Below the pieces are notes generated by a model, which was given only the letters and a program-made list of their open reading frames with translations, ran no database searches and had not been told where the DNA came from. This document shows positions 33,446-64,000 of a stretch of 64,000 nucleotides of DNA, piece by piece. Both the position numbers and the translations under genes were made by a program. The DNA is from Gemmatimonadota bacterium. GTDB lineage: Bacteria; Gemmatimonadota; Gemmatimonadetes; Gemmatimonadales; GWC2-71-9. The stretch lies in contig JADJOM010000002.1 of the NCBI GenBank assembly GCA_016713785.1, positions 132,404 to 196,403 on the forward strand, read 5' to 3'. Positions within the stretch are counted from its first letter, which is position 1. Every line of letters starts with the position of its first letter.

Positions 33446-33916
33446 TCACGGTTCCGGGCGATACTGCTCCAGAAACTCCCGCGACAGGCGCTGGTACGCT
33501 GGGTAGAGCGCCAACGCCATAAAGGATCCCGTGACGATGGCACAGAACGCTGCCGCGAGCAACTGGGCCTTCACGGGCTCTTCCGGATACAACAACACGC
33601 TCAAGACCACGGCAAGCGGGCTGGCAATGGCGACGCCTACCGGCACAAGGCGGCGGCGCGATAATGTGTGCGGATCCAGGAAGCCGACCACCGCCCCGGT
33701 GAATCCCGAGAAGGCGTAGTACAGCAGCATCGCCGCCCACCATGTGAGCCCGAGGCGCCGGAGATTCTCGCCTCCCGTGAACACGGCGAGTGCGGCGACG
33801 TAGACGACGACGATGCTGGCATACCGGAGGCTCTTCCCCACGAAGAACCGCACTCGGGGCCGAGTCAGGTCCTTCGCTGCCTCCCGAGCTAGTTCAACAG
33901 GGGTTTGATGATGCAT
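33446..33916 (-). CDS. four-helix membrane protein, candidate immunity for the main RHS toxin
   Basis: ATG 33916 overlaps the RHS 3' end by 28 nt. 156 aa with four hydrophobic helices. Confidence 0.65.
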   Translation of the reverse strand: MHHQTPVELAREAAKDLTRPRVRFFVGKSLRYASIVVVYVAALAVFTGGENLRRLGLTWWAAMLLYYAFSGFTGAVVGFLDPHTLSRRRLVPVGVAIASPLAVVLSVLLYPEEPVKAQLLAAAFCAIVTGSFMALALYPAYQRLSREFLEQYRPEP

Positions 33917-36900
33917 TCCATCCCCGTCTGCAAGGACGATACAGCGGTCCCTCCCCAGGGAACCCAACTTGCCGCCGCCCCTCCAACCGCCCAGAGGAAA
34001 TCGCTTGTCGACTGATCGGCCGACAACGCAGCTGTTGCCGCCCCACGTGCCCTCCAAATCCCAGCTCGGAGTGCGCGCTCCGCCGCAGCCGCCCTGCCCG
34101 CTCGCGCCCCTGCAAATGTCGACTTGCCGAACAGCCTCCAGTCGGCATGTGCCATTGCCCCGGCGAACTCGGTCTGGCTGCGTGCCCAGCTACCCAGCAC
34201 CTTTGCACGTTCGAGCCACCTGGCCTGGGTGAAGTCCAATGTGCCATTGATGACCAAGTTTGAGAATGCCGCGGCGCATCTCTGCCCCTGTGTCGGCTCG
34301 CCAGGACCCTCGCTTTCCTCCCCACCACCCGGGAGGTTCCGCCAGCGGTCGGGAATCTGGCCGCCAGAGCGCAGACGGACCCACTCGTCGGTGGACGAGG
34401 TCCAGCCGCTGTTGCATGGCTCCCCATTCGTGCCGTACCACGTCGGTATCCACTCCGGCTCATCATGCCTCTCCAGCGGTGGCAGGCACACCACGCCTGG
34501 ATCGCAGTCCGGATCCAGCCCAGAAGGATCCCGCCCATTGACCGGATCATTCCCCGCGTACGCGTAGACGTTCAGCCCGCCCGCGATCCCGATCGGGTCC
34601 TCGCTGATCCACCGCCCCAGGGCGGGGTCGTAGTACCGCGCCCGCATGTAGTAGAGCCCGGTCTCGCTGTCGTACTCCCGCCCCGCGAAGCGGTACCGCA
34701 CCACGATCCCCGTGTCGGCAACCGCGTCGCCCCAGGGCGCCTCGGTGAATTCCTTGACCTTGGCCCCGGTGCGGAACCGGGCCAGGCCGCGCACGGTGCC
34801 GTTGATCGGGTCGAGGATCGCCGCCAGGGTGTCGACTACCGGGGTGGTGGCCCGGAGGGCCAGGAGCCGGTCCACGCCCCCCGGATACCAAGCGTATTCC
34901 CGCAGCACGGTCCCCGCGGCGTTGAGGTCGAAGATGACCTGGTCGCCCTCGTATACGTAGTACTCGTCCGCGGCGGCCATCTGCTTCCGCACCCGGCGCC
35001 CGAGGGCATCATAGAACATGCTGTCCACGAGGGCGCCTGTCGAGCCGTTCCGGATGCCCCGGAGCCGGCCAAGAGCATCCCAGGAGTACTTGTACCCGGA
35101 GCCCGTCCCGCCCGGGCAGGCTCCCACCAGCCGGCAGACGATGCTCCCGATCGCATCGTAGGAGAGGTTGGTGGTGCCGAACGCGGCCAGCCGGTTCCCC
35201 GCCCCGTAGGTCGTCGTGGTACCAAGCTGGCCGCGGTTGCCGGTCGAATCGTAGGTCCAGGCGGAGTCGGTCGTGCCATTGATCACGTTCTGGCACTGGC
35301 TCCCGGTGGAGTCGCAGGCGTTGGTAAGCCGGCCCAGCCGGTCATAGCGGAATAGCCGCCGGGTGAAGGCGCCCCCCTTGGGCGACGTGCGGGTCTTGTT
35401 GCGCCCCACGGAGTCGTAGGTCATGATCGGCAATTCGAGCGCGGCAAGGTTGGTCCCGCCGGTGAAGGTCTGGCTGGTGATTCGGTGGTTGGCATCGAAC
35501 CCCTGGAGCAGGCGCCAGGCATTGGCGGTGCCGCGATTGAACACCAGCGTGTCCGCGACCCAGTCGGCCGTGGTCTTGAACGTCAGGCAGCGCTTGGGAT
35601 TGGCGAAGACGCAGAGGGAATCCCGGAGGCCGTTGCCCGTGGTGTACGCGAACTGGAGCAGGGAAGAGTCGGCCGCAGGGGTACTCGGTCGAAGAACGCG
35701 CCTCGTGACCCGGTCATAGGTGTCGTAGCTCAGGCTGCCGCTGTAAGTGCGGCCGTTCATGGTCTGTCGCCATGCGTCGAGGCGCCCCCGGGTATCGAGG
35801 TGGAAGCTGTCGCGGGCTACGCTGTTGTAGGCCACGTTCCACCGGCCCGCGAGGGTGTCGTACAGGAAGTAGTCGGTCGGGAAGCCCGGTCCCGCGCGCG
35901 ACAGCAGCCGACCAACCTTGTCGTAGCTGAGGTCGATCACGTCACCCCGGCGGGTCCGGAACTTCCGAAGGTTGCCGCCAAGGTCGTACTTGAGGGTGTC
36001 GGCCTTGGTGGTGTCCGTGGCATCGTAGCGGGCCACGAGGGCCCCGAGGGCGTTGTAGCCGAACTTGTAGACCACCGGCGCCGCCGCCCCGCCCGGCCGG
36101 GGTGTCTCCACCCGGATCAGCGCCAGGGTCGCCGGATCGTAGGTATTGGTGACCCGATACCCCGGCGCCGCCCAGGTTGTGGTCAGGACCTGGTTCATGA
36201 CGCCGTAGGCGGTGCGCGACGTCGCCGCGAGTGGCGTGATCGAACTGTCGGGCCGTCCAACCGAGTCGAGCGTGACGCGGGTTTCGATGCCTGAGGGATC
36301 CCTGACCTTGACCAGGTTGCCCCAGGAGGCGTGATAGGTGTAGCGGGTCTTGTGATTGAGGGGATCGACGACGGCGGTGTCCCGGCCGAGCGGGTCGGCG
36401 ATGTGCCGCTCCACGAGCTGCCCGGTGGTGGTGTCCGGCCACGCCCCGGTCACGCCCACGTAGATGTCCTTGAGCGCCCCCTTCGGCCCACCCGCCTGTC
36501 CGGTGCCGTAGTAGTGGAAGTCGGTCCGCACCCGGTCGCCCTCGATCCAGGTGAGGTCGCTGGTCAGGGTATCGAGGTAGTGATAGTAGGTGTTCCGGCC
36601 GCCCGGACCGTCGCCGGCATAGGTCAGCTGCCCATGCCCGTTGTAGGTGAACACGGCGTAGGCCCCATTGGCCTCATCGACCCGGGTGACCCGGCCGTCA
36701 CCATCCCGGGTGATCAGGGAGCGGACCCCGAACGGATCGACCACGACCGTCGGAGTGCCGTACGCGTCCTGGCTGTAGCGGACGATGGCACCCAGCGGGT
36801 CGGTCACCGATGACTTGAGCGAGGTGTCCGCCTTCACCCCGGCCTTGGGTGCGTTCAGCGCATTGCCCGGCGTCGTAGGCTGCCAGACCGTGCGCTCGGC

Positions 36901-38469
36901 GGGCTGAAAGGTCACCCGGGGCCGGCCGGTCGAGCCATCGAACAGGGTGACGCTCGGCGCTCGAAGGCTGTCCAGGCGATTGAGGCCGTCGTAGTACAAC
37001 TCACTCACGTTGCCCCCGCGATCGGTCACGCTTGCGAGCAGGCTATTGGCCCCGTACGCCAGGCTTTCCCCGTAACCATCCGGATCCTGGATCTGGGTGA
37101 TCTTGCCGCCGACGGTGGTGTACGTCACGGTCCGGAGGGCACTCGAGCCGTACTGGACTTCCACGTGATGGAGTTTGCCTGCCGTGGCGGAGCAACTCGC
37201 ATTGTAGCACAGCCGCAGCACGCGGCTGGTGGGGTCGGTGATGGTGCTCAGCAGCGAGTCGTAGGGCGCCGCCAGGTAGGCGAAGAGCGTCGCGTTGCCG
37301 AAGCGATCCGACGCCCTGGTCATGAATCCGTTGGCGTTGAACTCCACCGACGATCCGTCGAGGTAGGTGCGGGTGTACTTGCCCGACTGGTACGCCAGCC
37401 GCACGCCCGGCGCACCGGCGGGCCGGGCGTAACCCGCGGCCACGCTGTCGTAGAACGCGATCGAGCCGTCACCCTCGGTGATCACGACGTCACCCGTGGC
37501 ACTCCCCCGCTTGTAGAGCCGTTGATACCCCGCCAGGTCGAAGCCGGCCCCGAACGCGCTTCGGCTCTGGGCAGCGATGAGCACCTGGGTAGATACCGTA
37601 TCTCCCAGGGTCACATTGCCGGGATAGTACGCCATGATCGACAGTTCCAGGGGGAAAGCCCCGGTCGAGTCGAGACTGTTCGTCGCGGCGTCGAATGCAG
37701 CGGCGATGCGGGTCTGGCCCGAGGCATGGGCCGCGAAGTACGCGATGGTGGCGCCGTTGAGCAGCGTGAACCAGCTTCCCACCCCGCTGCGCCGGACCTG
37801 GATCGAATAGGCGGTGGGAAGGGTGGCGCCAGCGGACAGGGTCAGGTCAATCGGAATGACGGGCGTGGGCTTGTGCGTCTGGCTGTTGTAGGCCAGGGTC
37901 AGCGCCCGCGGGGCACCGAGGGAGAAGTACGCGGGGGTGGCGTGCGCGTACACGGCATCGAAGCAGCTCGCCACGCACTTCGCCACATCGCGGTAAGTCG
38001 CGTTGTGCGGCGTCAGCGCGATGACCGGAGGCGCCGGGCCCGTCGAGAGCACCGTGTACCATCCGTCGTCGCTGGCCGTCCCGGTGGCGCTCAGGGTCAG
38101 GGTGCCGCTGCCCACCGCGCCGGTGCTGTAGGTGGCCGTGACGGTGATCTCCTCGAGATCATCGAAGGAGTAGGAGGGAATGCTCAGGCCGGTGCAGGTC
38201 AAGGGCCCGGTCGTTGCGCAGGAAAAGGTGACTGCCCTGGAGCCCGGAGCGGTGTTGGCCACGGTAAAGGCAAGCGTCTGGCCGCTGCTCCCCGAGGGGG
38301 CAGAGGCGCTGCCGTTGTCCGGCGTCACCACGATGGCTCCGCCACCACCGCCCCCGCCCGCGAGCGGCGCCTCGATCTGGGCGCGGAGTGGGGCGGCGCT
38401 GGCGCCGACGAGGACCAGGGCGGCCGCGAGGGTCCAACAGGAGAACGCGACGTTCGCGGGACGATGCAC
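33889..38469 (-). CDS. RHS/YD-repeat polymorphic toxin with Sec signal peptide
   Basis: Many YD repeats. RHS core end is ...YAYAGNDPVNGRDPSGLDP, followed by a ~200-aa unique tail. Preferred start GTG 38469 has GGAG 8 nt upstream and gives MHRPANVAFSCWTLAAALVLVGASAAPLRAQ. The longest ORF starts at GTG 38556. Confidence 0.9.
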   Translation of the reverse strand: MHRPANVAFSCWTLAAALVLVGASAAPLRAQIEAPLAGGGGGGGAIVVTPDNGSASAPSGSSGQTLAFTVANTAPGSRAVTFSCATTGPLTCTGLSIPSYSFDDLEEITVTATYSTGAVGSGTLTLSATGTASDDGWYTVLSTGPAPPVIALTPHNATYRDVAKCVASCFDAVYAHATPAYFSLGAPRALTLAYNSQTHKPTPVIPIDLTLSAGATLPTAYSIQVRRSGVGSWFTLLNGATIAYFAAHASGQTRIAAAFDAATNSLDSTGAFPLELSIMAYYPGNVTLGDTVSTQVLIAAQSRSAFGAGFDLAGYQRLYKRGSATGDVVITEGDGSIAFYDSVAAGYARPAGAPGVRLAYQSGKYTRTYLDGSSVEFNANGFMTRASDRFGNATLFAYLAAPYDSLLSTITDPTSRVLRLCYNASCSATAGKLHHVEVQYGSSALRTVTYTTVGGKITQIQDPDGYGESLAYGANSLLASVTDRGGNVSELYYDGLNRLDSLRAPSVTLFDGSTGRPRVTFQPAERTVWQPTTPGNALNAPKAGVKADTSLKSSVTDPLGAIVRYSQDAYGTPTVVVDPFGVRSLITRDGDGRVTRVDEANGAYAVFTYNGHGQLTYAGDGPGGRNTYYHYLDTLTSDLTWIEGDRVRTDFHYYGTGQAGGPKGALKDIYVGVTGAWPDTTTGQLVERHIADPLGRDTAVVDPLNHKTRYTYHASWGNLVKVRDPSGIETRVTLDSVGRPDSSITPLAATSRTAYGVMNQVLTTTWAAPGYRVTNTYDPATLALIRVETPRPGGAAAPVVYKFGYNALGALVARYDATDTTKADTLKYDLGGNLRKFRTRRGDVIDLSYDKVGRLLSRAGPGFPTDYFLYDTLAGRWNVAYNSVARDSFHLDTRGRLDAWRQTMNGRTYSGSLSYDTYDRVTRRVLRPSTPAADSSLLQFAYTTGNGLRDSLCVFANPKRCLTFKTTADWVADTLVFNRGTANAWRLLQGFDANHRITSQTFTGGTNLAALELPIMTYDSVGRNKTRTSPKGGAFTRRLFRYDRLGRLTNACDSTGSQCQNVINGTTDSAWTYDSTGNRGQLGTTTTYGAGNRLAAFGTTNLSYDAIGSIVCRLVGACPGGTGSGYKYSWDALGRLRGIRNGSTGALVDSMFYDALGRRVRKQMAAADEYYVYEGDQVIFDLNAAGTVLREYAWYPGGVDRLLALRATTPVVDTLAAILDPINGTVRGLARFRTGAKVKEFTEAPWGDAVADTGIVVRYRFAGREYDSETGLYYMRARYYDPALGRWISEDPIGIAGGLNVYAYAGNDPVNGRDPSGLDPDCDPGVVCLPPLERHDEPEWIPTWYGTNGEPCNSGWTSSTDEWVRLRSGGQIPDRWRNLPGGGEESEGPGEPTQGQRCAAAFSNLVINGTLDFTQARWLERAKVLGSWARSQTEFAGAMAHADWRLFGKSTFAGARAGRAAAAERALRAGIWRARGAATAALSADQSTSDFLWAVGGAAASWVPWGGTAVSSLQTGMECIIKPLLN
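34542..34888 (-). repeat. ~350-bp direct repeat, copy 1 (inside the main RHS gene)
   Basis: See copies at 31010 and 32978. Confidence 0.9.
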
Positions 38470-38505
38470 CGGGAAGCTCCGGAGTGGGGATGCCTCCCTG
38501 ACAAG

Positions 38506-38520
38506 ACAAGCAACGTGCCA
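38506..38520 (-). promoter_or_regulatory. sigma-54 -24/-12-like element upstream of the RHS gene
   Basis: Minus strand reads TGGCACgttgcTTGTc, with GG-N10-GT (consensus TGGCAC-N5-TTGC). A second candidate cGGCGGcgcgaTTGCc lies at 38574-38559. Confidence 0.4.
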
Positions 38521-38575
38521 CCGTCGTGCGGCCCCAAGTCGTTTCCGTGGCGGCACTTGGCAATCGCGCCGCCGG

Positions 38576-38630
38576 TTTGTCGCAGCGACAGCGGCCCGCC
38601 GTGCGACAAACGGTGCGACACCGTGCGACT
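38576..38630. promoter_or_regulatory. cluster of TGTCGCA/TGCGACA heptamers (enhancer-like sites)
   Basis: TTTGTCGCA-N17-TGCGACAAA inverted pair. Palindrome TGTCGC-A-GCGACA. Three direct GTGCGAC(A/T) copies at 38601, 38613 and 38623. Confidence 0.35.
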
Positions 38631-39645
38631 AGTTCAGTCCTGTACCACCCGCGGGGCTCACCGGCGGCTGGATGCCCAGGCGCTTGAGGCGGCGGTACAA
38701 TGTGGCCCGGTGCACCCCGAGCAGCACCGCGACCCGGTCCACGTTCCAATCCTGCTCCTCGCAACAGGCCACCAGTTCCGCCCGCTGGTACTGCAGCCCG
38801 GGATCCTCGGGGCAACGCATGCGGTCCTGGCGGGCCCCCTCATCCGCCATATCGAGCGCTTCGCACAACGTGGCCGGCGTGAGGGGGCCCACCGGCTGCA
38901 GGGTGGCGGCCCGGGCCACCACATGGCGAAGCTCCCGGACATTCCCGGGCCAGGGGTAGCGCTCGAGCACGGTCCGGGTGCCAGGCTCCAGCACGGCGCC
39001 AAGCCGGCGCGCAAAGTGCTCGGCCAGCGGCCACACATCCTCGGGCCGCTCCCGTAGCGCCTGCAGCCGGATCACCACCCCGCCCAGCCGGTGCACGAGG
39101 TCAGCCCGGATGGGCAGGCCACCGGAGGCGCCCTCCAGGTCCTGGACCGCGGCGAGCAGCCGCACCGACACCCGGTGCACGGCGGTCTCCCCGACGCGCG
39201 AGAACTGGCCGGTCTCCGCCACGCGCAGCAGGGCCCGCTGGCCGGCGATCGGCAGGCTGGCGAGTTCGTCGAGAAACAGGGTCCCGCGATCGGCGGCCTC
39301 GAAGTACCCAGGGACGGTGTCGACCGCGCTCGTGAAGGCGCCGCGCCGATGGCCGAACAGCTCGCGGATCACCATGTCGGCCGGCAGCGCCCCACAATTG
39401 ACCTCGACCATCCGCCCGTCCCGGGCACTCCAGGCGTGAATCGCCTGCGCCAGCACCTCCTTGCCGGTGCCGGTGGGACCGACGAGCAGAATCGGGAGGC
39501 TGGTGCCCGCGAAGGCCCGTGCCCGCTCCACCGCCCGGCGCATGGAGGGCGACACGGCGATGATAGGTGAGTCCTCGGGAACGGAAGGGCGGAGGGCCGG
39601 CGCCCTGCCTTCCGTCGGTCCCCCGGGCTTTCCGACGACGGTCAT
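38629..39645 (-). CDS. sigma-54-dependent transcriptional activator (AAA+ plus Fis-type HTH) without a sensory domain
   Basis: Walker A GPTGTGKE, GAFTSA loop, Walker [17 protein letters not shown] and a C-terminal HTH. Only about 35 aa precede the AAA+ core. ATG 39645. Confidence 0.85.
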   Translation of the reverse strand: MTVVGKPGGPTEGRAPALRPSVPEDSPIIAVSPSMRRAVERARAFAGTSLPILLVGPTGTGKEVLAQAIHAWSARDGRMVEVNCGALPADMVIRELFGHRRGAFTSAVDTVPGYFEAADRGTLFLDELASLPIAGQRALLRVAETGQFSRVGETAVHRVSVRLLAAVQDLEGASGGLPIRADLVHRLGGVVIRLQALRERPEDVWPLAEHFARRLGAVLEPGTRTVLERYPWPGNVRELRHVVARAATLQPVGPLTPATLCEALDMADEGARQDRMRCPEDPGLQYQRAELVACCEEQDWNVDRVAVLLGVHRATLYRRLKRLGIQPPVSPAGGTGLN

Positions 39646-39931
39646 GGCGCGCCTACCGCCGGCAGAGTGAGCGCCATCAGGCGGCTTGCTCCTGCGTTCC
39701 CGGAGTCGAGGAGGGATGGACGGGGGCGTGCGGCGGGGCGGAACGACGGATGGGCGGACGGCGGGAGGGGCGGGCAAAGAGACATCAGGAGGACGGACCA
39801 CCAACGCAGGCAGAGGCGCACCGGGGCTCCGGATTCGGGATGCCCATTCCTTATGTCAGGAGATGTGCCGCGCGCGTCAAACCACGGAGTTGTTGTGGCG
39901 GAATGACTTGGGCGCCGACCCGGGCCGGGGC

Positions 39932-41930: not shown

Positions 41931-43832
<1,902 letters not shown>

Positions 43833-54080: not shown

Positions 54081-55790
54081 TCACCGCAGGGTGGGCGCGA
54101 AGGTGGAGTCGCGCCACACCGGCCGCCCCTCGAGCAGTGTGAGGAGCACCCGGGCCGTGTGCAGCTCGGTGGCCGGCAGCGCAAAGAGGTCGCGGTCGAG
54201 CACGATCAGGTCGGCCAGCTTGCCGGCCACCAGGCTGCCGGTCTCGCGCTCGGCGTGCTGGGCCCAGGCGGCGTTGATGGTGTAGGCGGCGAGCATCCGC
54301 GGCAGGTCGGCGCGCTCCTCGGGGAGCCACGCCGCGCCGTCGGGCCGGTTGAGCTCGTGCCGGGTGACGGCCACCTCGATCGCGTCGAGCGGATTGAGGG
54401 TCGAGACGGTCCAGTCGCTGCCGCCCGCTACCACCGCCCCGCTCGCGAGCATGCTGCCGATCGGGTAGAGCCAGCGCGAGCGGGCCGGCCCGAGCGCCGG
54501 CTCGGTGAGGTCGGCGATGTACTCGTCACGCTGGGCCCAGAAGGGCTGGAAGCTGGCCACCACGCCCAGGGCGCGGAAGCGGGGCAGGTCGGCGGGATCG
54601 AACAGCTCGATGTGCGCCAGCACCGGCCGCGCGTCGCGCGAGGGATGCGCCTCGCGGGCCCGGGCCAGCGCGTCGAGGGTCACCCGGATGGCGCGGTCGC
54701 CGATCGCGTGGACGTGGACCTGGAACCCCTCGCGATCGAAGCGGAGGATCCGTTCCTCCAGGGCCTCCGGCGCATACACCAGTGGGCCGGCGTCGCCGGG
54801 CCGGTCGAGGTACGGCGCCAGCAGCGCCGCGGTGCGCGCCTCGAGGACGCCGTCGGCGTAGAGCTTCACCGTGCCGGCCCGCACCCGCGAGGCGAACCGC
54901 GCACGGTCACGCAGGGCGCGCAGCCTGGGCACCATGCTGTCGAGCGGGACGTCCTCGTGGTCCCGGAGCGCGGCGGTGACCCGCGCGGTGAGCTCGTTGC
55001 GCTCGTCCACCGCGAGGTAGGCATCGAGGTAGTCCTCGCCCACGTCGGCGTCGGTGATGCTGGTGATCCCGAACCGGTTGGCCTCCGCCAGGGCCCGGCG
55101 CACCGCGCCGATCCGTTCCTCCCGCGAGTACGGGGGGAGCAGGCGGCTCACCAGCCCGATCGCCGACTCGCGCAGGGTGCCGCTCGGCTCGCGGGTGCGC
55201 GGATCGCGCTCGATCCGGCCGCCCGGCGGGTCCGGCGTCTCCCGGGTGACGCCGGCGAGCGCCAGCGCGCGGGAGTTGACCCACGCGGAGTGCCCGTCCG
55301 CGGCATAGAAGAAAGCCGGGCGGTCGGGCACCACGCGGTCGAGGAGAGCGCGGCCGGGATTCGCGCCCGGGAAGACCGGCAGCTGCCAGCCGTTGCCGCG
55401 CACCCACGGCAGGTCGGGATGGGCGTCAGCGTAGGCGTGGATCACGCCCTCGATCTCCGCCGCGGTCCGCGCCTCGTACAGGTTGCACTCGCGCAGCTCG
55501 AGCCCGCCGGACAGCGGGTGGGCGTGGGTGTCGCCGAAGCCCGGCAGCACCATCTTCCCCTCCAGCTCGATCACCTGCGTCCCGCCACCCACGAAGCGCT
55601 CGGCGCCGGCCACGTCGCCCACGTACACCAGGCGCCCCTCGCGGATGGCCACCGCCTCGGCCCAGGGGCGCTCCGGCTCCGCCGTCCACACCACGCCGTC
55701 ACGCAGCACCAGGTCGGCCGGCGTGGCCGGCGGCCGACGCTCCAGGTGGCAGCTGGTGAGGAGGGCAAGGAAGAGCAGGGATCCGGCCAT
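54081..55790 (-). CDS. amidohydrolase-3 family metal-dependent hydrolase (lipoprotein)
   Basis: Lipobox LALLTSC. Metal site PGFGDTHAHP. Family-typical length. Confidence 0.85.
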   Translation of the reverse strand: MAGSLLFLALLTSCHLERRPPATPADLVLRDGVVWTAEPERPWAEAVAIREGRLVYVGDVAGAERFVGGGTQVIELEGKMVLPGFGDTHAHPLSGGLELRECNLYEARTAAEIEGVIHAYADAHPDLPWVRGNGWQLPVFPGANPGRALLDRVVPDRPAFFYAADGHSAWVNSRALALAGVTRETPDPPGGRIERDPRTREPSGTLRESAIGLVSRLLPPYSREERIGAVRRALAEANRFGITSITDADVGEDYLDAYLAVDERNELTARVTAALRDHEDVPLDSMVPRLRALRDRARFASRVRAGTVKLYADGVLEARTAALLAPYLDRPGDAGPLVYAPEALEERILRFDREGFQVHVHAIGDRAIRVTLDALARAREAHPSRDARPVLAHIELFDPADLPRFRALGVVASFQPFWAQRDEYIADLTEPALGPARSRWLYPIGSMLASGAVVAGGSDWTVSTLNPLDAIEVAVTRHELNRPDGAAWLPEERADLPRMLAAYTINAAWAQHAERETGSLVAGKLADLIVLDRDLFALPATELHTARVLLTLLEGRPVWRDSTFAPTLR

Positions 55791-55914
55791 CGACCCTGGC
55801 CGGCGGGGCCGCGTCGCGCAGGCACGACCGCAGGGGTGCGGGGAGGGGAGGCATCGGTGCTGCCGGAGCGACGCGGCCCCGCGGCCGCGGAAGCCGTTGA
55901 GGCCGCTGAGGCCG

Positions 55915-57525
55915 CTACTCACGCGGCCCCGCCGTCACCGTGCCGATGCCGCTCAGCCAGCTGTAGGGGTCGATCGTGAATCCCTCCACCCGCCGCGACA
56001 CCGCGGCCACGTTCACCGGGGCGTACAGGAAGAGCGCGGGCGCGTCGGCGTTGAGGGTGTCGAGGGCGGCGCGCCACGCGCGGCGTGCGGCCAGGAGGTC
56101 GGCGGCACCGAGCGCCTCGTGGAACAGCCGGTCGAAGGCCGGATTGGCGTAGCGGCCGTAATTGAGGATGCCGATCCCGGCCGCGGTCCACTGGTCGGCC
56201 AGGCCGCGCGGGCTCGGTTCGTCGAGCCACGCCCCGATGTAGCTGTCGAACTCGCCCTTCCCCAGCCGCTCCTGGAAGACCGGGAAGTCCACCGCGGTGA
56301 CCGTCACCTCCGCGCCGACCAGCCGCCACCGTTCCTGCAGCAGCTCCGCCAGCCGGCGGCGGCCCAGGCTGGTGGCGGGCACCAGGATGTCGAAGCCGAG
56401 CCGCGTCCCGGCGCGGGCGCGCACCCCGCCGGCGCCGCGGGGCCAGCCGGCGGCATCGAGGGCCTGCGCCGCGGCGGCGGTGTCGGAGGGGAGCGTGGCC
56501 ACGCTGTCGTCCCACACCCAGAGCAGCTGCGACATGGGGCCGGGTGGCGCCTTGGCGCCCTCGCCGAAGACCGTGCGGGCGATCGCCGGCCGGTCCACCG
56601 CCATGGTGAGCGCGCGCCGCACGGCGCGGTCGGCGAGGGGGCCGCCGCCGGGCCGCCGCATGGCCGCACCGCCCAGGTTGAAGCCGAGGAACCCGTAGGC
56701 CGCGGCGGGATAGGAAACGGTGCGGAGCCCGGAGTCGGCCGCGACGCGGGCCACCCGCTCCGGCGCGCCCACCGCCTCCAGGAGGTCCGCCTCGTGCGAC
56801 AGCACCAGGTTGAGCGCCGCGTCGGGGTCGGCGGCAAAGCGCCAGGTGAGCGTCCCCACGCCGGCGCGCCGCCCGCCCGCGGTGTCGGCCACCAGCGTGA
56901 GCGACTGCCCCCGCGCCCACGCCCCCATCCGGTAGGGCCCGCTGCCGATCACGTGCGCCACCGCGGTATCGCTGCCCCAGGTGCTGCGTTCCTGCCAGCG
57001 CCAGACATGCGCCGGGATCACCCGCACGTGCCAGGTGGCGTCGTACAGCTGCTCGGGATAGGCGCGCGCAAACTGCACCAGCACCGTGCTCGAGTCCTCC
57101 GCGCTGGCCGAGAGCTGGCCGGCGAGGGAGCCGCGGGCGGGGGTGTCGAGCACCGAGTCGGCGTACGACTCGAACGAGAAGACCACGTCGCCGGCGGTGA
57201 CCGGCTCGCCGTCGTGCCACCGGGCGCCGGGCCGGAGGTGGAACCGCAGGGTGAGGCTGTCCACCCGCTCCCATCGCGCGGCCAGCGCCGGCCGGTAGGC
57301 GCCGGTGTCGATCGGCGCGCCACCCGGGACCAGGTCGGCCAGCCGCTCGTACACCCGGTCGCCGATGTCGCGGCCCACCGTCTCGTAGACCAGCGGCGGC
57401 AGCAGCGCCTCCGGCTCGCCGGTGGCCGCGATCACCAGCTGGTCGCAGGTGGGGCAGGGACGGGCGTCGCGGCAGGCGAGCAGGGCGGCGAGGCCCAGGA
57501 GGACGAGACGGGAACGCGGGGGCAC
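55915..57525 (-). CDS. ABC transporter substrate-binding protein, family 5 (peptide/nickel type)
   Basis: Signal/lipobox LAALLAC. Family 5 pattern throughout. Confidence 0.8.
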   Translation of the reverse strand: MPPRSRLVLLGLAALLACRDARPCPTCDQLVIAATGEPEALLPPLVYETVGRDIGDRVYERLADLVPGGAPIDTGAYRPALAARWERVDSLTLRFHLRPGARWHDGEPVTAGDVVFSFESYADSVLDTPARGSLAGQLSASAEDSSTVLVQFARAYPEQLYDATWHVRVIPAHVWRWQERSTWGSDTAVAHVIGSGPYRMGAWARGQSLTLVADTAGGRRAGVGTLTWRFAADPDAALNLVLSHEADLLEAVGAPERVARVAADSGLRTVSYPAAAYGFLGFNLGGAAMRRPGGGPLADRAVRRALTMAVDRPAIARTVFGEGAKAPPGPMSQLLWVWDDSVATLPSDTAAAAQALDAAGWPRGAGGVRARAGTRLGFDILVPATSLGRRRLAELLQERWRLVGAEVTVTAVDFPVFQERLGKGEFDSYIGAWLDEPSPRGLADQWTAAGIGILNYGRYANPAFDRLFHEALGAADLLAARRAWRAALDTLNADAPALFLYAPVNVAAVSRRVEGFTIDPYSWLSGIGTVTAGPRE

Positions 57526-57565: not shown

Positions 57566-58483
57566 CTACTGTGCCACGTACCGGATGGTGTCCGTGGCCA
57601 GCAGCGGGAATGAAGGCGCGATGGAGTACGGTCCGGCGGAGAAGGACGGCACCCAGGTGGTATCCCCGACCGTCACCGGCGCCCACGATGCGTAGACGGT
57701 GCCGCTCTCGTAGAACGCCAGGTCGTAGGGACCGGCGGGGATCCGCGGATCCTCCCGCCACAGGCCGTTCGCCTCCACGAAGCTCCCCTGGGCATGTATC
57801 GAGGGTGGTAGCCCCTCGATCACCAGCCGGACGAACCCCTCATAGGGGAGCAGAAGCACCGTGTCACGCGCCAGCACCGGACTGGCGACGGCCTCGATGA
57901 CCAGCGTGTCGAGCGAATAGACCTGCCGGATGAAGCCATCGACCACGGAGGTGCCGCGGAAGAAGGTGAGGGTGTACTGGCCCGGCCGGAGATTGGAGAA
58001 ACGGGCCGGCTGGCCCACCACGGCCACGCCGTGCAGCACCGTGTCGCTGCCGAGCCGGCTGCCGGTGAACCCCACCGCGGCGCCGGCTGGACCGCCGATG
58101 GCGATCACGAGAAAGCCCGCCGATGTCACCGCGTACTCCCCGGTGACCAGATACGGTGGATCGGCCGCGGCCACCACCGTGGTGTCGGCCGCGGCGGCAT
58201 AGGTGAAGCGGTCACCGCTGTCGGAGACGGTGCGTGGGTCCCACCGCACCACGTAGTCGCCGTAGGGGAGGCCGGGATGGCTTCGGGTCTCGGCGGCGGT
58301 CAGCGCCCCGGACAGCACCGGGGCGCCGTCACGCAGCACCGTGTACGGCGCGGTGTAGCCCGCCGGGATCCCGCTGGCAGCCACCGTAAGGACGCCGGTC
58401 TGGGCCCCACCGGATTCGCCCGTCCCTCCCCCGCCGCAGGCCGCGAGGAGCGCGGCCCCCGCGAGGCTCAGGCGCTTGGACAT
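57566..58483 (-). CDS. lipoprotein, function unknown
   Basis: Lipobox ALLAAC followed by a Gly-rich linker and repeated beta-rich modules. Confidence 0.7.
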   Translation of the reverse strand: MSKRLSLAGAALLAACGGGGTGESGGAQTGVLTVAASGIPAGYTAPYTVLRDGAPVLSGALTAAETRSHPGLPYGDYVVRWDPRTVSDSGDRFTYAAAADTTVVAAADPPYLVTGEYAVTSAGFLVIAIGGPAGAAVGFTGSRLGSDTVLHGVAVVGQPARFSNLRPGQYTLTFFRGTSVVDGFIRQVYSLDTLVIEAVASPVLARDTVLLLPYEGFVRLVIEGLPPSIHAQGSFVEANGLWREDPRIPAGPYDLAFYESGTVYASWAPVTVGDTTWVPSFSAGPYSIAPSFPLLATDTIRYVAQ

Positions 58484-59018: not shown

Positions 59019-59290
59019 GGCGACGATCCGCGTGAGGGGGTCAGCGGCCGGGTCCTGAGGGGTCGCCAGAGAGGATAGTCCACAGGAACGAAATGGCAAC
59101 TCTCCGGCGGCCAGGTACGATACCAGCCCAGGGCGTCCGGCCCAGGAACGGCCGCCCTGGCCTCCGGGTCACCCGGCGCGCAACGAATCATTACACCTGC
59201 CTCGTTCTATAGTGTTTCTTGAGCAGTGTGCTGGCTCACACCGCGTCCATAATTCAATTGTTTGCAAGAGTTTGGCTTACATGCCTGAAA

Positions 59291-59306
59291 TGGCCTGTCC
59301 ATTGCT
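59291..59306 (+). promoter_or_regulatory. sigma-54 -24/-12 promoter
   Basis: TGGCCTgtccaTTGCT with exact GG-N10-GC spacing. It lies 53 nt upstream of ATG 59359. Confidence 0.55.
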
Positions 59307-59358
59307 TTGTCAGGGGCCAGGAAGCAGAAGACACCGGACCACTCACAGGAGCCTGACA

Positions 59359-60129
59359 ATGACCCCGATCAAGTTCGGCCCGGCCGCCCTCGCCGCCGTG
59401 GCCCTCCTCACCGCCTGCGGCAGCGATGCCAGCGGGCCCGCCGTCTCCGGCCGGAAGGTGGCCTTCCAGCTGGCCACCAAGCCCGCCGGCGCCGCCCCGG
59501 CCCAGGCCGCCCTGGCGGGCCAGGAAGTGATTGCGGTCGGCAGCGACACGATCGTCCTGACCAGCGTGCAGCTGGTGCTGCGGGAGATCGAGCTCGACCG
59601 CGTCAGCGGCGCCGTCTGCGACAGCGGCGCGGCCGACGATGACTGCGAGGAGCTCGAGCTCGGCCCCGTCCTGCTCGACCTGCCCCTCGGCGCCGGCGCC
59701 GAGCGCCAGTTCTCCGTGGCCATCGACACCGGGTCGTACGACAAGATCGAGTTCGAGGTCCACAAGCCCTCCGGCGATGACGACTCGGCCTTCGTGGCCC
59801 AGCACCCCGGCTTCGACGGCGTGAGCGTCATGGTGACCGGCACCTGGAACGGCGTCGCGTTCACCTACACCTCCGACCTGGACGTGGAGCAGGAGTACAG
59901 CTTCAACCCGCCGCTGCTCGTCACCGAGACCACCGGCGCCAACGTGACCCTGTTCGTGGACCTGACCAGCTGGTTCATGAACCAGGCGGCCGACGGCCTC
60001 CTCGACCCCGCCCAGGCCAACAAGGGCGGCACCTACGAGGGCGAGGTCAAGAGCAACATCGAATCGTCGCTCAACGCCTTCGAGGACGACGACCGCGACG
60101 GCGAGGATGATCACGGCAGCGACAGCTGA
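59359..60129 (+). CDS. acidic lipoprotein A (possibly DUF4382-like), C-terminal DxDxDG calcium-loop motif
   Basis: AGGAG lies 8 nt upstream of the ATG. Lipobox LLTAC. Paralogue of 61256..62104. Ends FEDDDRDGEDDHGSDS. Confidence 0.8.
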   Translation: MTPIKFGPAALAAVALLTACGSDASGPAVSGRKVAFQLATKPAGAAPAQAALAGQEVIAVGSDTIVLTSVQLVLREIELDRVSGAVCDSGAADDDCEELELGPVLLDLPLGAGAERQFSVAIDTGSYDKIEFEVHKPSGDDDSAFVAQHPGFDGVSVMVTGTWNGVAFTYTSDLDVEQEYSFNPPLLVTETTGANVTLFVDLTSWFMNQAADGLLDPAQANKGGTYEGEVKSNIESSLNAFEDDDRDGEDDHGSDS

Positions 60130-60153
60130 CCGCGCGGGAGGGGGAAACCGGAG

Positions 60154-60185
60154 ACGGGAAGCGGGAGATCACCCCCGCTTCCCGT
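60154..60185 (+). terminator. intrinsic-terminator-like hairpin
   Basis: acgggaagcggg-(8 nt)-cccgcttcccgt followed by ttcccttttcccgttt. Confidence 0.6.
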
Positions 60186-60218
60186 TTCCCTTTTCCCGTT
60201 TCCCGGTAGCTTCCGGGC

Positions 60219-61094
60219 ATGCCCACCCGCGCCGCCCGCGGCATCCGCAGCGCCCAGCTCGGCCTCGTGGTGAACACGCTCCTCGCGATCACCAAGCTGG
60301 TCGCGGGCATCCTCGGCAACGCCTACGCGCTGGTGGCCGACGCCGTCGAGTCCACCGCGGACATCTTCTCCTCGCTGATCGTCTGGGGCGGGCTGCAGAT
60401 CGCCACCCGCCAGGCCGACGACGAATACCCCTTCGGCTACGGCAAGGCCGAGCCACTCGCGGCCACCGTCGTGTCGCTCCTGCTCATCGGGGCGGCGGCG
60501 GGCATCTCCGTCGAGGCGCTGCGCGAGATCCGCACCCCCCATCACACGCCGGCGCCGTTCACGCTCATCGTGCTGGTGGCGGTCATCGTGGTGAAGGAGG
60601 TGCTGTTCCGCCGGGTGCTCAAGGTGAGCGACGAGGTGAGCAGCACCGCGGTCAAGGCCGACGCCTGGCATCACCGCAGCGACGCCATCACTTCGGCCGC
60701 GGCCTTCCTCGGCATCAGCGTCGCGCTGCTGGGTGGGCCGGGGTGGGAATCGGCCGACGACTGGGCGGCCCTCGCCGCCGCGGGCGTGATCGTGGTCAAC
60801 GCCATCCGGCTGCTGCGACCCGCCATCGGTGACCTCATGGACAAGAGCCCCGGCGCGCACCTGCTGGAGCGCATCGGCGAGGCCGCGCGCGCCACGACCG
60901 ACGTCCGCCACATCGAGAAACTCAAGGTCCGCAAGGCCGGGCTGCAGTACTACGTGGACCTCCACGTGCAGGCCGACCCCGCCCTCTCCCTCCACGACGC
61001 CCACATTCTGAGTGGCCGGGTGAAGACCGCCATCCGGGCCGCCGTGCCCGAGGTGGCCGGGGTCCTGATTCACATGGAGCCCCATGAGGTGTAA
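60219..61094 (+). CDS. cation diffusion facilitator (CDF) family metal efflux transporter
   Basis: Six helices. ADAVESTAD in TM2, HHRSD (HxxxD) in TM5, and a C-terminal cytoplasmic domain ending LIHMEPHEV. Confidence 0.9.
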   Translation: MPTRAARGIRSAQLGLVVNTLLAITKLVAGILGNAYALVADAVESTADIFSSLIVWGGLQIATRQADDEYPFGYGKAEPLAATVVSLLLIGAAAGISVEALREIRTPHHTPAPFTLIVLVAVIVVKEVLFRRVLKVSDEVSSTAVKADAWHHRSDAITSAAAFLGISVALLGGPGWESADDWAALAAAGVIVVNAIRLLRPAIGDLMDKSPGAHLLERIGEAARATTDVRHIEKLKVRKAGLQYYVDLHVQADPALSLHDAHILSGRVKTAIRAAVPEVAGVLIHMEPHEV

Positions 61095-61188
61095 CATTCT
61101 GTTCCAGCTTGATCGTTTCGATCGGCGGGACGGACGCCACAACACGGCGCAAGTCATTGCAGGGTGATGCTTTATCGGTGCAGCCTCA

Positions 61189-61205
61189 GGGGCACTTGAG
61201 TTGCT
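61189..61205 (+). promoter_or_regulatory. sigma-54 -24/-12 promoter
   Basis: gGGCACttgagTTGCT with exact GG-N10-GC spacing. It lies 51 nt upstream of ATG 61256. Confidence 0.6.
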
Positions 61206-61255
61206 CCTTTCTCCGGCAGATGCGGTCCCCCTCACTCTGCCCGGAGACAGTTCCC

Positions 61256-62104
61256 ATGCCGAAGTCACTTCCGCGCCTGGCGGCGCTCTGCGGGATGGCC
61301 GGTGTGCTGACGGCCTGCAGCGGCGATGGCGCTGGTCCGACCACCGGTGCCCAGGTCACGTTCAACCTTGCGGTCGGCTCGACCGGTCCCGCGGTGCGCG
61401 GGTTGGTGAGCGACACCCTGACCGACGCCACCAACACGCTGGTGCTCGACAGCGTGCAGCTGGTGCTGCGGGACATCCGGTTCAAGCGGGTCGAGGACAG
61501 CGCGTGCGATGGCGATGACGACGAATCGGGGTCGCTCTTCGCGCTGGGCCAGCACGACGACAGCACGGACGACGATGATGGCGACGGCCACGACGGGCAC
61601 GCCGATGGCTGCGAGGCCTTCAACGCCGGGCCGTACCTGCTCGACCTGCCGCTCGACTCCACCGTGGAGAAGGCCTTCGCGGTGGCGGTGGACACCGGCA
61701 CCTACGACCAGGTGCGGATCAAGGTCCACAAGCCGTCCCACAGTGGGGGCGACCCGAAGGACGCGCAGTTCCTGGCCGACCATCCCGCGTTCGACGGCGT
61801 GAGCGTCCGGGTGGTGGGGAGCTTCAACGGCACGCCGTTCGTGTTCACCCAGGACATCGAGGCCGAGCAGCGGATGGACTTCGTGCCGGCGCTGGTGGTG
61901 GCCGATACGGTGTCGAACATCAATGTGACGCTGAAGGTGGACCTGGCGGGCTGGTTCAGCGACGGCGCCGGATCGCTGGTCGACCCGGCGACCGCCAGCA
62001 AGGGCGGGGCGAACGACCACCTTGTCCGGGACAACATCAAGGACTCCTTCCGCGCCTTCCGCGACGACGATCGCGACGGCGAGGACGAGTCCGGCGACGA
62101 TTAA
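61256..62104 (+). CDS. acidic lipoprotein B, paralogue of A with an expanded Asp/His-rich loop
   Basis: Lipobox VLTAC. Shares SVQLVLR.I, LLDLPL, VHKPS, HP.FDGVSV, NVTL.VDL..WF and F.DDDRDGED with protein A. Confidence 0.8.
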   Translation: MPKSLPRLAALCGMAGVLTACSGDGAGPTTGAQVTFNLAVGSTGPAVRGLVSDTLTDATNTLVLDSVQLVLRDIRFKRVEDSACDGDDDESGSLFALGQHDDSTDDDDGDGHDGHADGCEAFNAGPYLLDLPLDSTVEKAFAVAVDTGTYDQVRIKVHKPSHSGGDPKDAQFLADHPAFDGVSVRVVGSFNGTPFVFTQDIEAEQRMDFVPALVVADTVSNINVTLKVDLAGWFSDGAGSLVDPATASKGGANDHLVRDNIKDSFRAFRDDDRDGEDESGDD

Positions 62105-62109
62105 CCGGT

Positions 62110-62151
62110 CCCCCGGGGCCGGCCGGCGTGGGCGCCGGCCGGTTCCGGGGG
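62110..62151 (+). terminator. long GC hairpin after lipoprotein B
   Basis: 19-bp stem (two G-T wobbles) with a 4-nt loop. It starts 6 nt after the stop. No U-tract. Confidence 0.5.
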
Positions 62152-62197
62152 CCGCAGGAGAGAGCCGCTGCCCACAACGACCTGGACCCTCGCCGCG

Positions 62198-63511
62198 GTG
62201 CGGCTCTCCGACAGCTTCCGGACCACCCTCATCGACCTCGCGGCCGATGTGGGCGCGGCGCTGACCGAGTGGACGCCGGGCACCGGCGAGGCGCTGCCGG
62301 CGGGGAGCACCTGCCTCCTGGTGCTCGCGGGCGGGGCCGAGGGACCGGCCGCGGACCTGCTGCCCAGTCTCCCCGCGACGCTGCCCCGCTACGTGGTGGG
62401 GGCGGCGCCGGACCACCGGCTGGCGGCGGCGATGTTCCAGGGGGGCGCGCGGGACTATTTCGCCTTGCCCGAAGACCTGGGGCTGCTCCGCCGGACGCTG
62501 GAGCGGGAGCGGGGAGCGGCAACGGGCCGGGCCGACGCGGCGCAGTTCGCCGCCGGCGAACGCCGGCTCTCGGGGTTCGACGCGATCGTGGGCCGGAGCG
62601 CCACGCTCGCCCGGACGCTGGACCAGGCCCGGCGGGTGGCGCGGCACCGCGACGTGACGGTGCTGATCGGGGGCGAGACCGGCACGGGCAAGGAGCTGCT
62701 GGCCCGCGCCCTGCACTACGACAGCCCGCGGGCCGAGGCGCCGTTCGTCGAGATCAACTGCGCGGCGATCCCGGCCAACCTGCTCGAGAGTGAGCTGTTC
62801 GGGCACGAGAAGGGCGCCTTCACCGGCGCGGTGGGCGCCAAGCCGGGGCTGATGGAGCAGGCGCACGGCGGGACGGTCTTCCTCGACGAGATCGGGAACC
62901 TCCCGCTCGACCTGCAGCCCAAGCTGCTGCGGGCACTGGAGAGCCGGGAGATCCGGCGCGTGGGCGGGCAGCAGACCCGCAAGGTGGATGTGCGGGTGAT
63001 CGGCGCGAGCCACATCGACCTGGCGGCCGCCGTCGCCCGGGGGGAGTTCCGCGAGGACCTCTTCTACCGGCTCAACGTGGTGGCGCTGGTGCTGCCGCCG
63101 CTGCGCGACCGGGGCGAGGACGTCCTGGTGCTGGCGGAGGCGTTCGCGGCGCGGCTGGCCGCCCAGTACGGCCTGCCGGTGCCGGCCCTCGGTCCGGAGG
63201 CGCGCGAGGCGATCCGGGCCCACCCGTGGCCCGGCAACGTGCGCGAGTTGCGCAACGCCATCGAACGGGCGCTGGTGCTCTCGACCCCGGGCACCCTGGA
63301 GCTGGGCGAGCTCACGGCGCAGCGGGGCGCGGCGCCGGCACGGGACGGGGCGCTGCCCTTCCCCGCCACCCTGCGGCAGATCACCCAGGCGGCGGTACAG
63401 GGCATGCTGGAGCTGGTCAGTGGCAACAAGAGTGAGGCGGCGCGGCGGCTCGGGATCTCCCGCCCCCGCCTGCAGCGGATTCTCGATGGGCAGGGCGACG
63501 ACGACACCTAG
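62198..63511 (+). CDS. sigma-54-dependent Fis-family activator with degenerate receiver-like N-terminus
   Basis: [30 protein letters not shown] and a C-terminal HTH ([13 protein letters not shown]). GTG start. Confidence 0.9.
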
Positions 63512-63554: not shown

Positions 63555-64000
63555 ATGCGATATCCCCTCCGTTCCCTCACCCTGGCCACGGCGCTGCTCG
63601 CCGCGGCCGGCGCCTGCGCCGACTCCACCGGCGGCGGCGGCGGCACGCCGCCCGACCAGCTCACCTACCTCACGCTGCCGGACACCGCGCCGGCACTCTG
63701 CGCCGACAGCACCGGCGGGTGGGCGGTGAAGGATCCCAATGCCCAGGACTTCGAGATCGCGCTCGAGTTCCCCGAGTCCGGGGACCCGGCCGACTGCCTC
63801 GGCGGCCAGACCGAGGACTTCATCCGCCTCAAGATCGAGAAGCTGGCCCTGCTGCGCCGGCCCGACGGCACGCTGATCTCCAACGGCGACTCGGTCTTCA
63901 TCAGCGTGAAGTGGGTGGGCAGCGACTCGATCCTCTTCGACCTCGAGCCCTCCGGCCTGACCTTTGACCCGGCCAAGCCCGCGGACCTCAAGATCGAATA
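63555..64000 (+). CDS. lipoprotein, 3' end outside window
   Basis: GAGGAG lies 6 nt before ATG 63555. MRYPLRSLTLATALLAAAGAC lipobox. Frame 3 is open to the window end. The ORF is absent from the track because no stop falls in the window. Confidence 0.65.
   Translation, partial: MRYPLRSLTLATALLAAAGACADSTGGGGGTPPDQLTYLTLPDTAPALCADSTGGWAVKDPNAQDFEIALEFPESGDPADCLGGQTEDFIRLKIEKLALLRRPDGTLISNGDSVFISVKWVGSDSILFDLEPSGLTFDPAKPADLKIE

Follow-up and report, generated by a model that had tools for sequence, protein, structure and literature searches.

The 64,000-nt stretch of Gemmatimonadota DNA analyzed here (contig JADJOM010000002.1 of assembly GCA_016713785.1, positions 132,404 to 196,403; in the following called the window) carries five plus-strand genes between 59.1 and 64.0 kb, namely lipA, a CDF-family gene, lipB, a gene for a sigma-54 enhancer-binding protein (EBP) and lip3. 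Comparison with related loci makes it very probable that lipA and lipB belong to a sigma-54/EBP regulon and that the cassette is specific to the order Gemmatimonadales. Taken as a whole, the cassette is best read as the combination of a kinase-less EBP with cation-binding envelope lipoproteins, a reading that we hold with reasonable but clearly lower confidence, and the role of the lipoproteins in divalent-cation binding or buffering, considered on its own, is a tentative proposal with somewhat less than an even chance. The regulatory logic predicted from the sequences appears canonical and well supported; the regulation is standard, and it is the family of the targets, the way in which the signal enters and the lineage that are undescribed.

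Sigma-54 promoters, enhancers and transcript ends

An earlier note, made from the letters of the window, had pointed to GG-N10-GC elements about 50 nt upstream of two lipoprotein genes. The exact spacing is present in both cases, in TGGCCTGTCCATTGCT (59291-59306, +; TGGCCT-N5-TTGCT), 53 nt before the lipA ATG, and in GGGCACTTGAGTTGCT (61190-61205, +; GGGCAC-N5-TTGCT), 51 nt before the lipB ATG, which deviate from the sigma-54 consensus TGGCAC-N5-TTGCW at two and one positions, respectively. Within the window alone, consensus matches with up to two mismatches are not enriched (15 found versus 22 expected), and this number together with the two mismatches of the lipA site would be in line with the view that the GG-N10-GC matches are due to chance or are remains of something else, the genes being read from ordinary promoters. 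For comparison, 80 loci at species level were used, every one of them from a metagenome-assembled genome of Gemmatimonadales or Gemmatimonadota, and they speak against this view. When sites scoring at least 9/11 and located 20-110 nt upstream of a family gene were accepted, 71 of the 119 family genes in the 80 species were found to have an nGGCAC-N5-TTGC-type site, at about 50 nt from the start codon, while approximately 0.8 were expected, given that only 119 other GG-N10-GC sites of this quality exist on both strands of 1.62 Mb. Anchored alignments of 72 orthologous promoters revealed a nearly invariant GGCAC-N5-TTGC in otherwise unalignable DNA, and about 70 promoters keep the position and sequence of the element although the proteins of these species are just 42-75% identical. 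Moreover, a phased enhancer is present and an EBP with GAFTGA loop is adjacent in 66 loci, so that the chance explanation appears effectively refuted by the comparative data and is rated as extremely improbable. Because of the conservation in relatives, which is the only source of significance since the window statistics alone are insufficient, both -24/-12 elements of the window are judged to be genuine sigma-54 promoters, as far as sequence comparison can tell.

The conservation also has some structure. In tightly adjacent tandem pairs of family genes the element is found in front of the first gene only, and the lack of a site before the second genes fits operons. The lipB -24/-12 element is kept in all lipB orthologues, and a subclade of lipA promoters, to which that of the window belongs, deviates at -22/-21 (TGGTCC, TGGCCC, CGGTAT) with a degraded -24 half. 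Sigma-54 promoters were also sought ahead of the CDF, SBP5 and DinB genes and none was found there, while the recurrent TGGCACGGGCGCTGCA inside the EBP genes was rejected as a promoter, being coding sequence (LLARALH). In three loci (L076, L082, L065) extra lipoprotein genes of the family occur away from any EBP and without recognizable -24/-12 element, which indicates that not every paralogue is in the regulon. The use of sigma-54 by this lineage is indicated by two EBP genes in the window and by Gemmatimonas aurantiaca, for which rpoN and 12 EBPs have been listed (Francke et al. 2011, supplement).

Upstream of both window promoters the same palindrome, TGYAACG-N3-CGTTRCA, was identified as a putative enhancer (upstream activator sequence). 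The lipA dyad CGCAACGAATCATTACA (59179-59195, +) is situated 112 nt upstream of the -24 T and matches the palindrome at 12/14 positions, and the first lipB dyad TGTAACATTCTGTTCCA (61090-61106, +) is situated 100 nt upstream of -24, where it overlaps the stop codon of the CDF gene. A dyad matching at 11/14 or more positions occurs 70-130 nt upstream in 85% of the 72 orthologous promoters versus 0.8% of control windows taken at random from the same loci; the dyad consensus was derived from the very loci in which this enrichment was measured, but this derivation does not account for the size of the enrichment or for the positional phasing. The preferred distances from -24 are 112-114, 99-102 and 90-92 nt; they differ by about one helical turn (~11 bp), which would keep the dyad on the same helix face. 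LipA-type and lipB-type promoters use different steps, the former being fixed at 112-114 nt and the latter at 99-102 nt (20 promoters). Frequently a second dyad follows 21 bp downstream of the first, as with GATCGTTTCGATC (61111-61123, +) before lipB, and it is kept at a distance of 79 nt in many loci of the clade with a CDF gene; we infer that it is a second activator site and that the dyads are bound by the EBP encoded in the cassette. Between enhancer and promoter lies an AT-rich element, ATAATTCAATTGTTTGCAAGAGTTTGG (59249-59275, +) for lipA and CAAGTCATTGCAGGGTGATGCTTTATC (61150-61176, +) for lipB. For the lipA element, columns reading TAAC...GCAACG..T are conserved in the anchored alignments between -42 and -20, counted from the -24 T, and the lipB element contains conserved AAGT..TT and TTA columns. 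It might be possible that these AT-rich elements serve as IHF-like DNA-bending sites.

The strong hairpins reported by the earlier note behind each lipoprotein gene were recovered by folding. The GC hairpin after lipA (60150-60189, +; dG -56.4 kcal/mol, z = -4.6) resembles a terminator and is followed by the pyrimidine-rich tail GTTTCCCTTTTCCCGTTTCCC, and the one after lipB (62106-62154, +) has a 19-bp GC stem. A scan for intrinsic terminators found none of them, as they are without canonical U-run. Long perfect GC hairpins follow lipA in essentially all 20 CDF-clade loci examined, and comparable hairpins follow lipB in most, not all, orthologous loci. Because the hairpin after lipA is kept while the sequences are unrelated, selection appears to act on structure, and the hairpins would function as terminators or stabilizers. 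Behind the lipA hairpins, the tails are built from short repeats of pyrimidines, CCGTTTC / CCCTTTTC in the window (60190-60206) and in the loci L008 and L021, and CACCTTT in L033, with up to about 10 copies. In this lineage, such repeats may take the place of the U-tract that intrinsic terminators have. Collectively, the arrangement of the elements supports the notion that lipA and lipB are separate monocistronic sigma-54 units sharing one type of enhancer.

The conserved cassette and the place of the CDF gene

Both a family lipoprotein gene and the EBP gene were found in 66 of the 80 loci, the remaining ones being mostly truncated contigs. The lip3 gene stands directly after the EBP gene in 54 of these 66 loci, and a gene for a cytoplasmic TPR protein of ~330 aa follows lip3. 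Two lipoprotein genes are present in 36 of the 66 loci, while the commonest architecture (26 loci) consists of an SBP5 gene on the minus strand followed by one lipoprotein gene, EBP and lip3. From this distribution the conserved core would comprise the lipoprotein(s), the EBP, lip3 and the cytoplasmic TPR protein. An SBP_bac_5 lipoprotein gene is located divergently upstream of the cassette in 57/66 loci. In the window, the SBP_bac_5 lipoprotein and Amidohydro_3 genes (55915-57525 and 54081-55922, both -) occupy this upstream position; they are kept order-wide, in 57 of 66 loci, and no sigma-54 element faces them.

The predicted divalent-metal exporter of FieF/YiiP/MamB type is encoded between the two lipoprotein genes (60219-61094, +), and its assignment to the CDF family is clear from the Pfam matches to Cation_efflux (5.5e-45) and ZT_dimer (4.2e-18) and from TIGR01297 (208 bits versus a cut-off of 82). 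The best NCBIfam matches are MamB, MamM and FieF, all below every equivalog cut-off. Aligned with YiiP of Shewanella (2.7e-25), the site A ligands correspond to ExxxD/HxxxD (E-D-H-D), with Glu as first ligand.

The earlier note had treated this exporter as part of the sigma-54 module and had regarded a conserved gene order as a test of its proposal. The order lipoprotein-EBP, mostly with lip3, is indeed conserved, whereas the CDF gene is present in only 26 of the 66 complete loci and absent from 40. All 26 belong to the clade closest to the window; 23 have the order lipA-CDF-lipB-EBP and the other three lipA-CDF-EBP without lipB. The same clade also gained a DinB-family gene. Instead of a -24/-12 element, the CDF gene has a -10-like hexamer of its own, TAGCTT (60207-60212, +), 6 nt before its ATG, and in 26 of 29 loci TA[TG]CTT or TAC[AT]TT was found 5-8 nt ahead of this ATG, in each case without Shine-Dalgarno sequence. 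The hexamer likely represents a sigma-70-type promoter giving rise to a leaderless CDF mRNA. An Rfam search ahead of the CDF gene revealed no riboswitch, for example of the NiCo or Mn2+ classes, only spurious miRNA-like matches on the hairpin that separates the gene from lipA. Because it is absent from 40/66 loci and has its own -10-like element and no -24/-12 element, the CDF gene is considered to have been inserted in this one clade, to be transcribed independently and to stand outside the ancestral module. The CDF gene flanked by sigma-54 lipoprotein units would thus be a derived state and not the design of the system.

A further possible insertion was noted nearby. A gene for a 305-aa lipoprotein without Pfam match is located between the DinB-family and SBP_bac_5 genes of the window (57566-58483, -). 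Its counterpart was found in none of the 80 related loci, including L005 with about 90% identical neighbor genes, and it looks like a recent insertion.

The activator and its proposed acidic lipoprotein targets

The EBP (62168-63511, +) is composed of a receiver-like N-terminus, an AAA+ domain (Sigma54_activat PF00158, 3.4e-69) and a Fis-type helix-turn-helix that remains borderline (HTH_8, 21.7 bits versus a cut-off of 22). The translation shows the Walker A motif GETGTGKE and an intact GAFTGA loop, the latter in agreement with the earlier note. All 62 full-length orthologues have an N-terminal domain of about 125 residues in common. Its profile matches only receiver domains in the PDB (NtrC, DctD, SenB), weakly (E 0.03-1) and in the beta4-alpha5 region. 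In 62/62 orthologues LAGG occupies the position of the phospho-acceptor Asp and DYFALP replaces DYLxKP with its conserved Lys. The degenerate character ascribed earlier to this domain thus extends to all orthologues, and the N-terminus is interpreted, from its sequence, as a conserved pseudo-receiver without phosphorylation site. The assignment to NtrC/ZraR-type response regulators was rejected, because the phospho-acceptor Asp and the Lys are absent and no kinase gene is adjacent. No HisKA or HATPase_c gene was found in the cassette, neither in the window nor in the annotated loci, and a hybrid kinase gene at 41931-43832 is 18 kb away from it. Since the cassette has no sensor kinase, lip3 and the TPR protein are regarded as the best candidates for signal input or anti-activation.

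The likely start codon of the EBP is a CTG at 62168, 10 codons before the first GTG (62198). Of 42 orthologues, 23 have CTG at the equivalent position, 8 have GTG and one has ATG, with GTG or ATG being used there in more distant relatives. An AGGAG is placed 8 nt upstream of the in-frame CTG, and the N-terminal extension is conserved at the protein level, so that translation probably begins at this CTG. In the closest relative (L005, 5331-6612, MAG JBGAPX010000102), an inverted segment splits the EBP gene into the pattern EBP+, EBP-, EBP+, which represents either a rearrangement or an assembly artefact.

LipA (59359-60129, +; 256 aa) and LipB (61256-62104, +; 282 aa) were confirmed as paralogues, sharing 42% identity (E=2e-59). 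Both are predicted to be lipid-anchored, as is Lip3, since lipoboxes were found in LipA (LLTAC|GSD), LipB (VLTAC|SGD) and Lip3 (LLAAAGAC), and the Cys is invariant in the alignments. The LipA/LipB family is new and large, with 530 matches in a database clustered at 90% and 1,133 representatives after clustering at 50% identity, and every named member comes from Gemmatimonadota. Conservation is seen for the lipobox Cys, a further pair of Cys residues, an HKP motif, WF and a C-terminal FEDxDxDGxDDH tail, which in LipA reads FEDDDRDGEDDH. The Cys pair encloses an acidic loop of 9 residues in LipA and of 35 residues in LipB, the latter containing a 29-residue Asp/His-rich insertion, and the loop length varies across the family. 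The description of the proteins as Asp/His-rich holds for the acidic part, as the mature proteins have isoelectric points of 4.05 and 4.15 with 26 Asp and 17 Glu in LipA and 43 Asp in LipB, but not for histidine, of which there are only 3 and 7 residues, respectively. The tail is nevertheless enriched in His in the close clade, with about 2 per last 15 aa.

DxDxDG is a classical Ca2+ loop motif. It is found at residue 243 of LipA and at residues 106 and 270 of LipB, and the form D-x-[DN]-x-D-G was found within the last 30 residues of 35/38 close and 104/139 distant family members; a calcium loop is predicted for LipA and LipB on this basis. Lip3 (63555-64000, +, cut by the end of the window) was confirmed as a third lipoprotein but not as a third paralogue, since hhalign aligns the signal peptide only. 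It belongs to a different uncharacterized family, whose members have about 205-215 aa and an invariant C-terminal GF(S/T)RYA(I/L)AY. In many species Lip3 has a DxDxDG loop of its own (position 155 in an orthologue) with weak resemblance to dockerin calcium loops.

Profile searches and structure prediction, both proposed in the earlier note, gave no Pfam or NCBIfam match for LipA, LipB or Lip3 and all-beta AlphaFold (AF2) models for LipA (pLDDT 82) and LipB (pLDDT 81). In Foldseek comparisons against the PDB, the top match of LipA was MbnP (7L6G; probability 0.69, TM score 0.29), and for LipB all six MbnP chains of 7L6G ranked at the top (probability 0.92-0.99, E=2.5e-3, TM score 0.37-0.41) ahead of the next match at 0.30. 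Among 139 family members, sub-threshold Pfam matches were obtained to MbnP in 22 and to DUF4382 in 21, the best MbnP score being 26.4 bits versus a cut-off of 27. Because two independent methods, fold and Pfam comparison, point to the same family, a remote relationship of the LipA/LipB family to MbnP and DUF4382 is credible. According to the models, LipA and LipB would be two-part beta-sandwich proteins with an acidic, disulfide-bounded loop of variable length.

The window contains a second sigma-54 EBP gene (38629-39804, -; 391 aa, no receiver) directly upstream of the gene for a 1,555-aa RHS-repeat protein (region 33889-39804, -). A TGGCAC-N5-TTGT sequence (38520-38505) lies between the two genes, and the same interval has three TGTCGCAC repeats and a TGTCGC/GCGACA inverted repeat (38640-38565). 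This region may represent a second sigma-54 unit with its own enhancer.

Known analogues and possible function

No papers were found in a literature search for sigma-54 together with CDF, in accordance with the earlier note, which knew of no described system of this kind. ZraP is a soluble helical protein of the CpxP/Spy type. A described analogue nevertheless exists in the zraP/zraSR genes, in which the gene for a periplasmic zinc-binding stress protein is under a sigma-54 promoter and next to its EBP (PMC4987338). As in this system of E. coli and Salmonella, the Gemmatimonadales cassette appears as a small, self-contained unit, in which the gene for an accessory protein exposed to the periplasm is driven by sigma-54 and an adjacent NtrC-family EBP would act at an enhancer. 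However, ZraR is a true response regulator phosphorylated by ZraS, whereas the receiver of the Gemmatimonadales EBP is without Asp and Lys and has no kinase. LipA and LipB are predicted lipid-anchored beta-sandwich proteins without sequence relation to ZraP, and the cassette has lip3 and TPR genes beyond the zraP/zraSR set. Membership of LipA and LipB in the CpxP/Spy/ZraP (LTXXQ) family was rejected in view of the lacking Pfam/NCBIfam match and the all-beta models. By analogy, ZraP/ZraSR can be regarded as the closest functional counterpart, from which the cassette differs in every component.

MbnP (PF20243; 7L6G) is a periplasmic copper-binding protein of methanobactin and MbnPH operons, and MbnH is a di-haem peroxidase. 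MbnP provides the top fold match in the PDB for both models, and the only comparatively confident one; the envelope proteins have about 250-290 residues in both cases, and the 22 sub-threshold Pfam matches cover the N-terminal sandwich. The LipA/LipB family differs from it in being predicted, sigma-54-controlled lipoproteins with DxDxDG tails, in having no WxW motif and in lacking, in the annotated neighborhoods, a gene for MbnH or a TonB transporter. In MbnP, a Trp of WxW becomes kynurenine, a copper ligand (PMC11951088). Membership in MbnP proper was rejected on the absence of a gathering-score match, of WxW and of an MbnH gene. The matches to DUF4382 (PF14321), an uncharacterized lipoprotein domain, cover residues ~65-205 with a best E value of 1e-4, all below the gathering score, and no functional literature on DUF4382 was found apart from one passing mention. 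With PspF-PspA, NifA-NifL and HrpS-HrpV the cassette shares an EBP without working phospho-receiver, and the gene order suggests that the accessory proteins Lip3 or TPR, whose genes are probably co-transcribed with it, could control it by contact. Proteins homologous to PspA, NifL or HrpV were not found in the cassette, and a role of the TPR protein as anti-activator is speculation. The exporter resembles FieF/YiiP and MamB/MamM in its Cation_efflux and ZT_dimer domains and the aligned transport-site residues, and it differs from FieF/YiiP in the first site A ligand, which is Glu and not Asp.

In the mechanism that we propose, the EBP would bind the palindromic enhancer, often at a second dyad 21 bp away as well, about 100-112 nt upstream of the -24/-12 element, the AT-rich segment would permit DNA looping, and the GAFTGA loop would use ATP hydrolysis to open the sigma-54 closed complex, with a strong hairpin ending each transcript. 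One or two genes, each transcribed as a monocistronic unit, would be switched on in this way, and their products, abundant and strongly acidic lipoproteins of the envelope, would bind or buffer Ca2+ or transition metals there in a ZraP-like manner under an envelope or metal stress that the kinase-less EBP would perceive through partner proteins. The proposed cation binding draws on the remote MbnP relation, on the acidic DxDxDG/His tails and loops and on the YiiP-type exporter in one clade; these three hints are independent and individually weak, and they make the role plausible. The metal-buffering function suggested by the earlier note thus gains some support from the MbnP relation and the DxDxDG tail and remains an inference.

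Two other functions of the cassette have to be weighed against this proposal. The CDF protein could be the core of an integrated metal-efflux module, pumping a transition metal (Zn, Cd, Fe, Mn, Co) into the periplasm, where the lipoproteins would capture or chaperone it while the EBP senses metal stress. Such a module would be consistent with the gene order shared by 23 of the 26 loci of the CDF clade, the overlap of the lipB enhancer with the CDF stop codon, the almost intact YiiP/FieF-like transport site and the acidic lipoproteins with their MbnP-like fold signal. It is nevertheless considered unlikely, because 40 of the 66 complete loci have the lipoprotein-EBP-lip3 cassette without CDF gene, the CDF gene is preceded by a conserved -10-like element of its own instead of a sigma-54 promoter and is insulated from lipA by the conserved hairpin, no riboswitch or metal-sensor element was found, and the CDF clade resembles one ancestral event. 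The position of the CDF gene between the lipoprotein units fits a metal link and does not prove one. Somewhat less likely still, the lipoproteins could be calcium-stabilized structural, adhesive or surface proteins outside metal homeostasis, with sigma-54 governing the cell exterior and the CDF gene as a neutral passenger. The calcium loop, present also in the unrelated and weakly dockerin-like Lip3, would suit this role, as would the strong terminators, which suggest abundant structural products, and the known link of sigma-54 to lipoproteins and the cell exterior (Francke et al. 2011). Further weak fold matches are Bacteroides 'cell adhesion' and pilin-like beta-sandwiches; however, the adhesins reach a Foldseek probability of at most 0.3 versus 0.92-0.99 for MbnP, the Pfam matches are to MbnP and DUF4382 and to no adhesin families, and the tail of the close clade is enriched in His.

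Several observations weigh against the reading of the cassette as a sigma-54 unit for cation-binding lipoproteins. On the regulatory side, the lipA promoter is a weak match with TGGCCT instead of TGGCAC, no rpoN box was found when the window and the fetched loci were searched, the dyad consensus stems from the loci under study, and the N-terminal domain of the EBP has no evident metal ligands, with neither kinase nor metal sensor nearby. As regards cation binding, LipA and LipB match no Pfam or NCBIfam family, the similarity to MbnP is low in TM score (0.29-0.41) and sub-threshold in sequence, with a root-mean-square deviation of 11-13 A between the models and the MbnP structure, the profile of the 139-member family retrieved nothing from the PDB sequences, the WxW motif is absent from the 38 close and 139 distant family members, and MbnH is encoded in none of the annotated neighborhoods. 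Finally, the sigma-54 promoters do not drive the CDF gene, the link of this gene to the cassette probably rests on a single ancestral insertion common to one clade, and its persistence may reflect inheritance rather than selection.

A still broader reading, in which the TPR protein and Lip3 check or trigger the pseudo-receiver EBP in an order-wide envelope cation-stress response with massive output of MbnP-like lipoproteins, and in which one clade recruited the CDF exporter, is rather unlikely, if less so than the efflux module. Should it be true, it would mean that signals reach sigma-54 by a new route and that the MbnP/DUF4382 superfamily has a further, functionally new branch.

Gemmatimonadota are abundant in soil and wastewater and almost unstudied genetically. 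The present analysis provides a complete predicted cis-regulatory architecture for one sigma-54 regulon of Gemmatimonadales, consisting of dyad, AT-rich spacer, -24/-12 element and terminator, and corrects the impression that sigma-54 controls a CDF exporter. It offers a first functional handle on a large uncharacterized family of lipoproteins, which comprises over 1,100 clusters at the 50% identity level, and ties this family, at the level of a credible remote relationship, to the MbnP/DUF4382 superfamily. Moreover, an EBP whose receiver apparently turned into a pseudo-receiver in nature raises the question of how such activators are controlled. If the lipoproteins indeed bind cations, the cassette would represent a ZraP-like envelope response built from unrelated parts.

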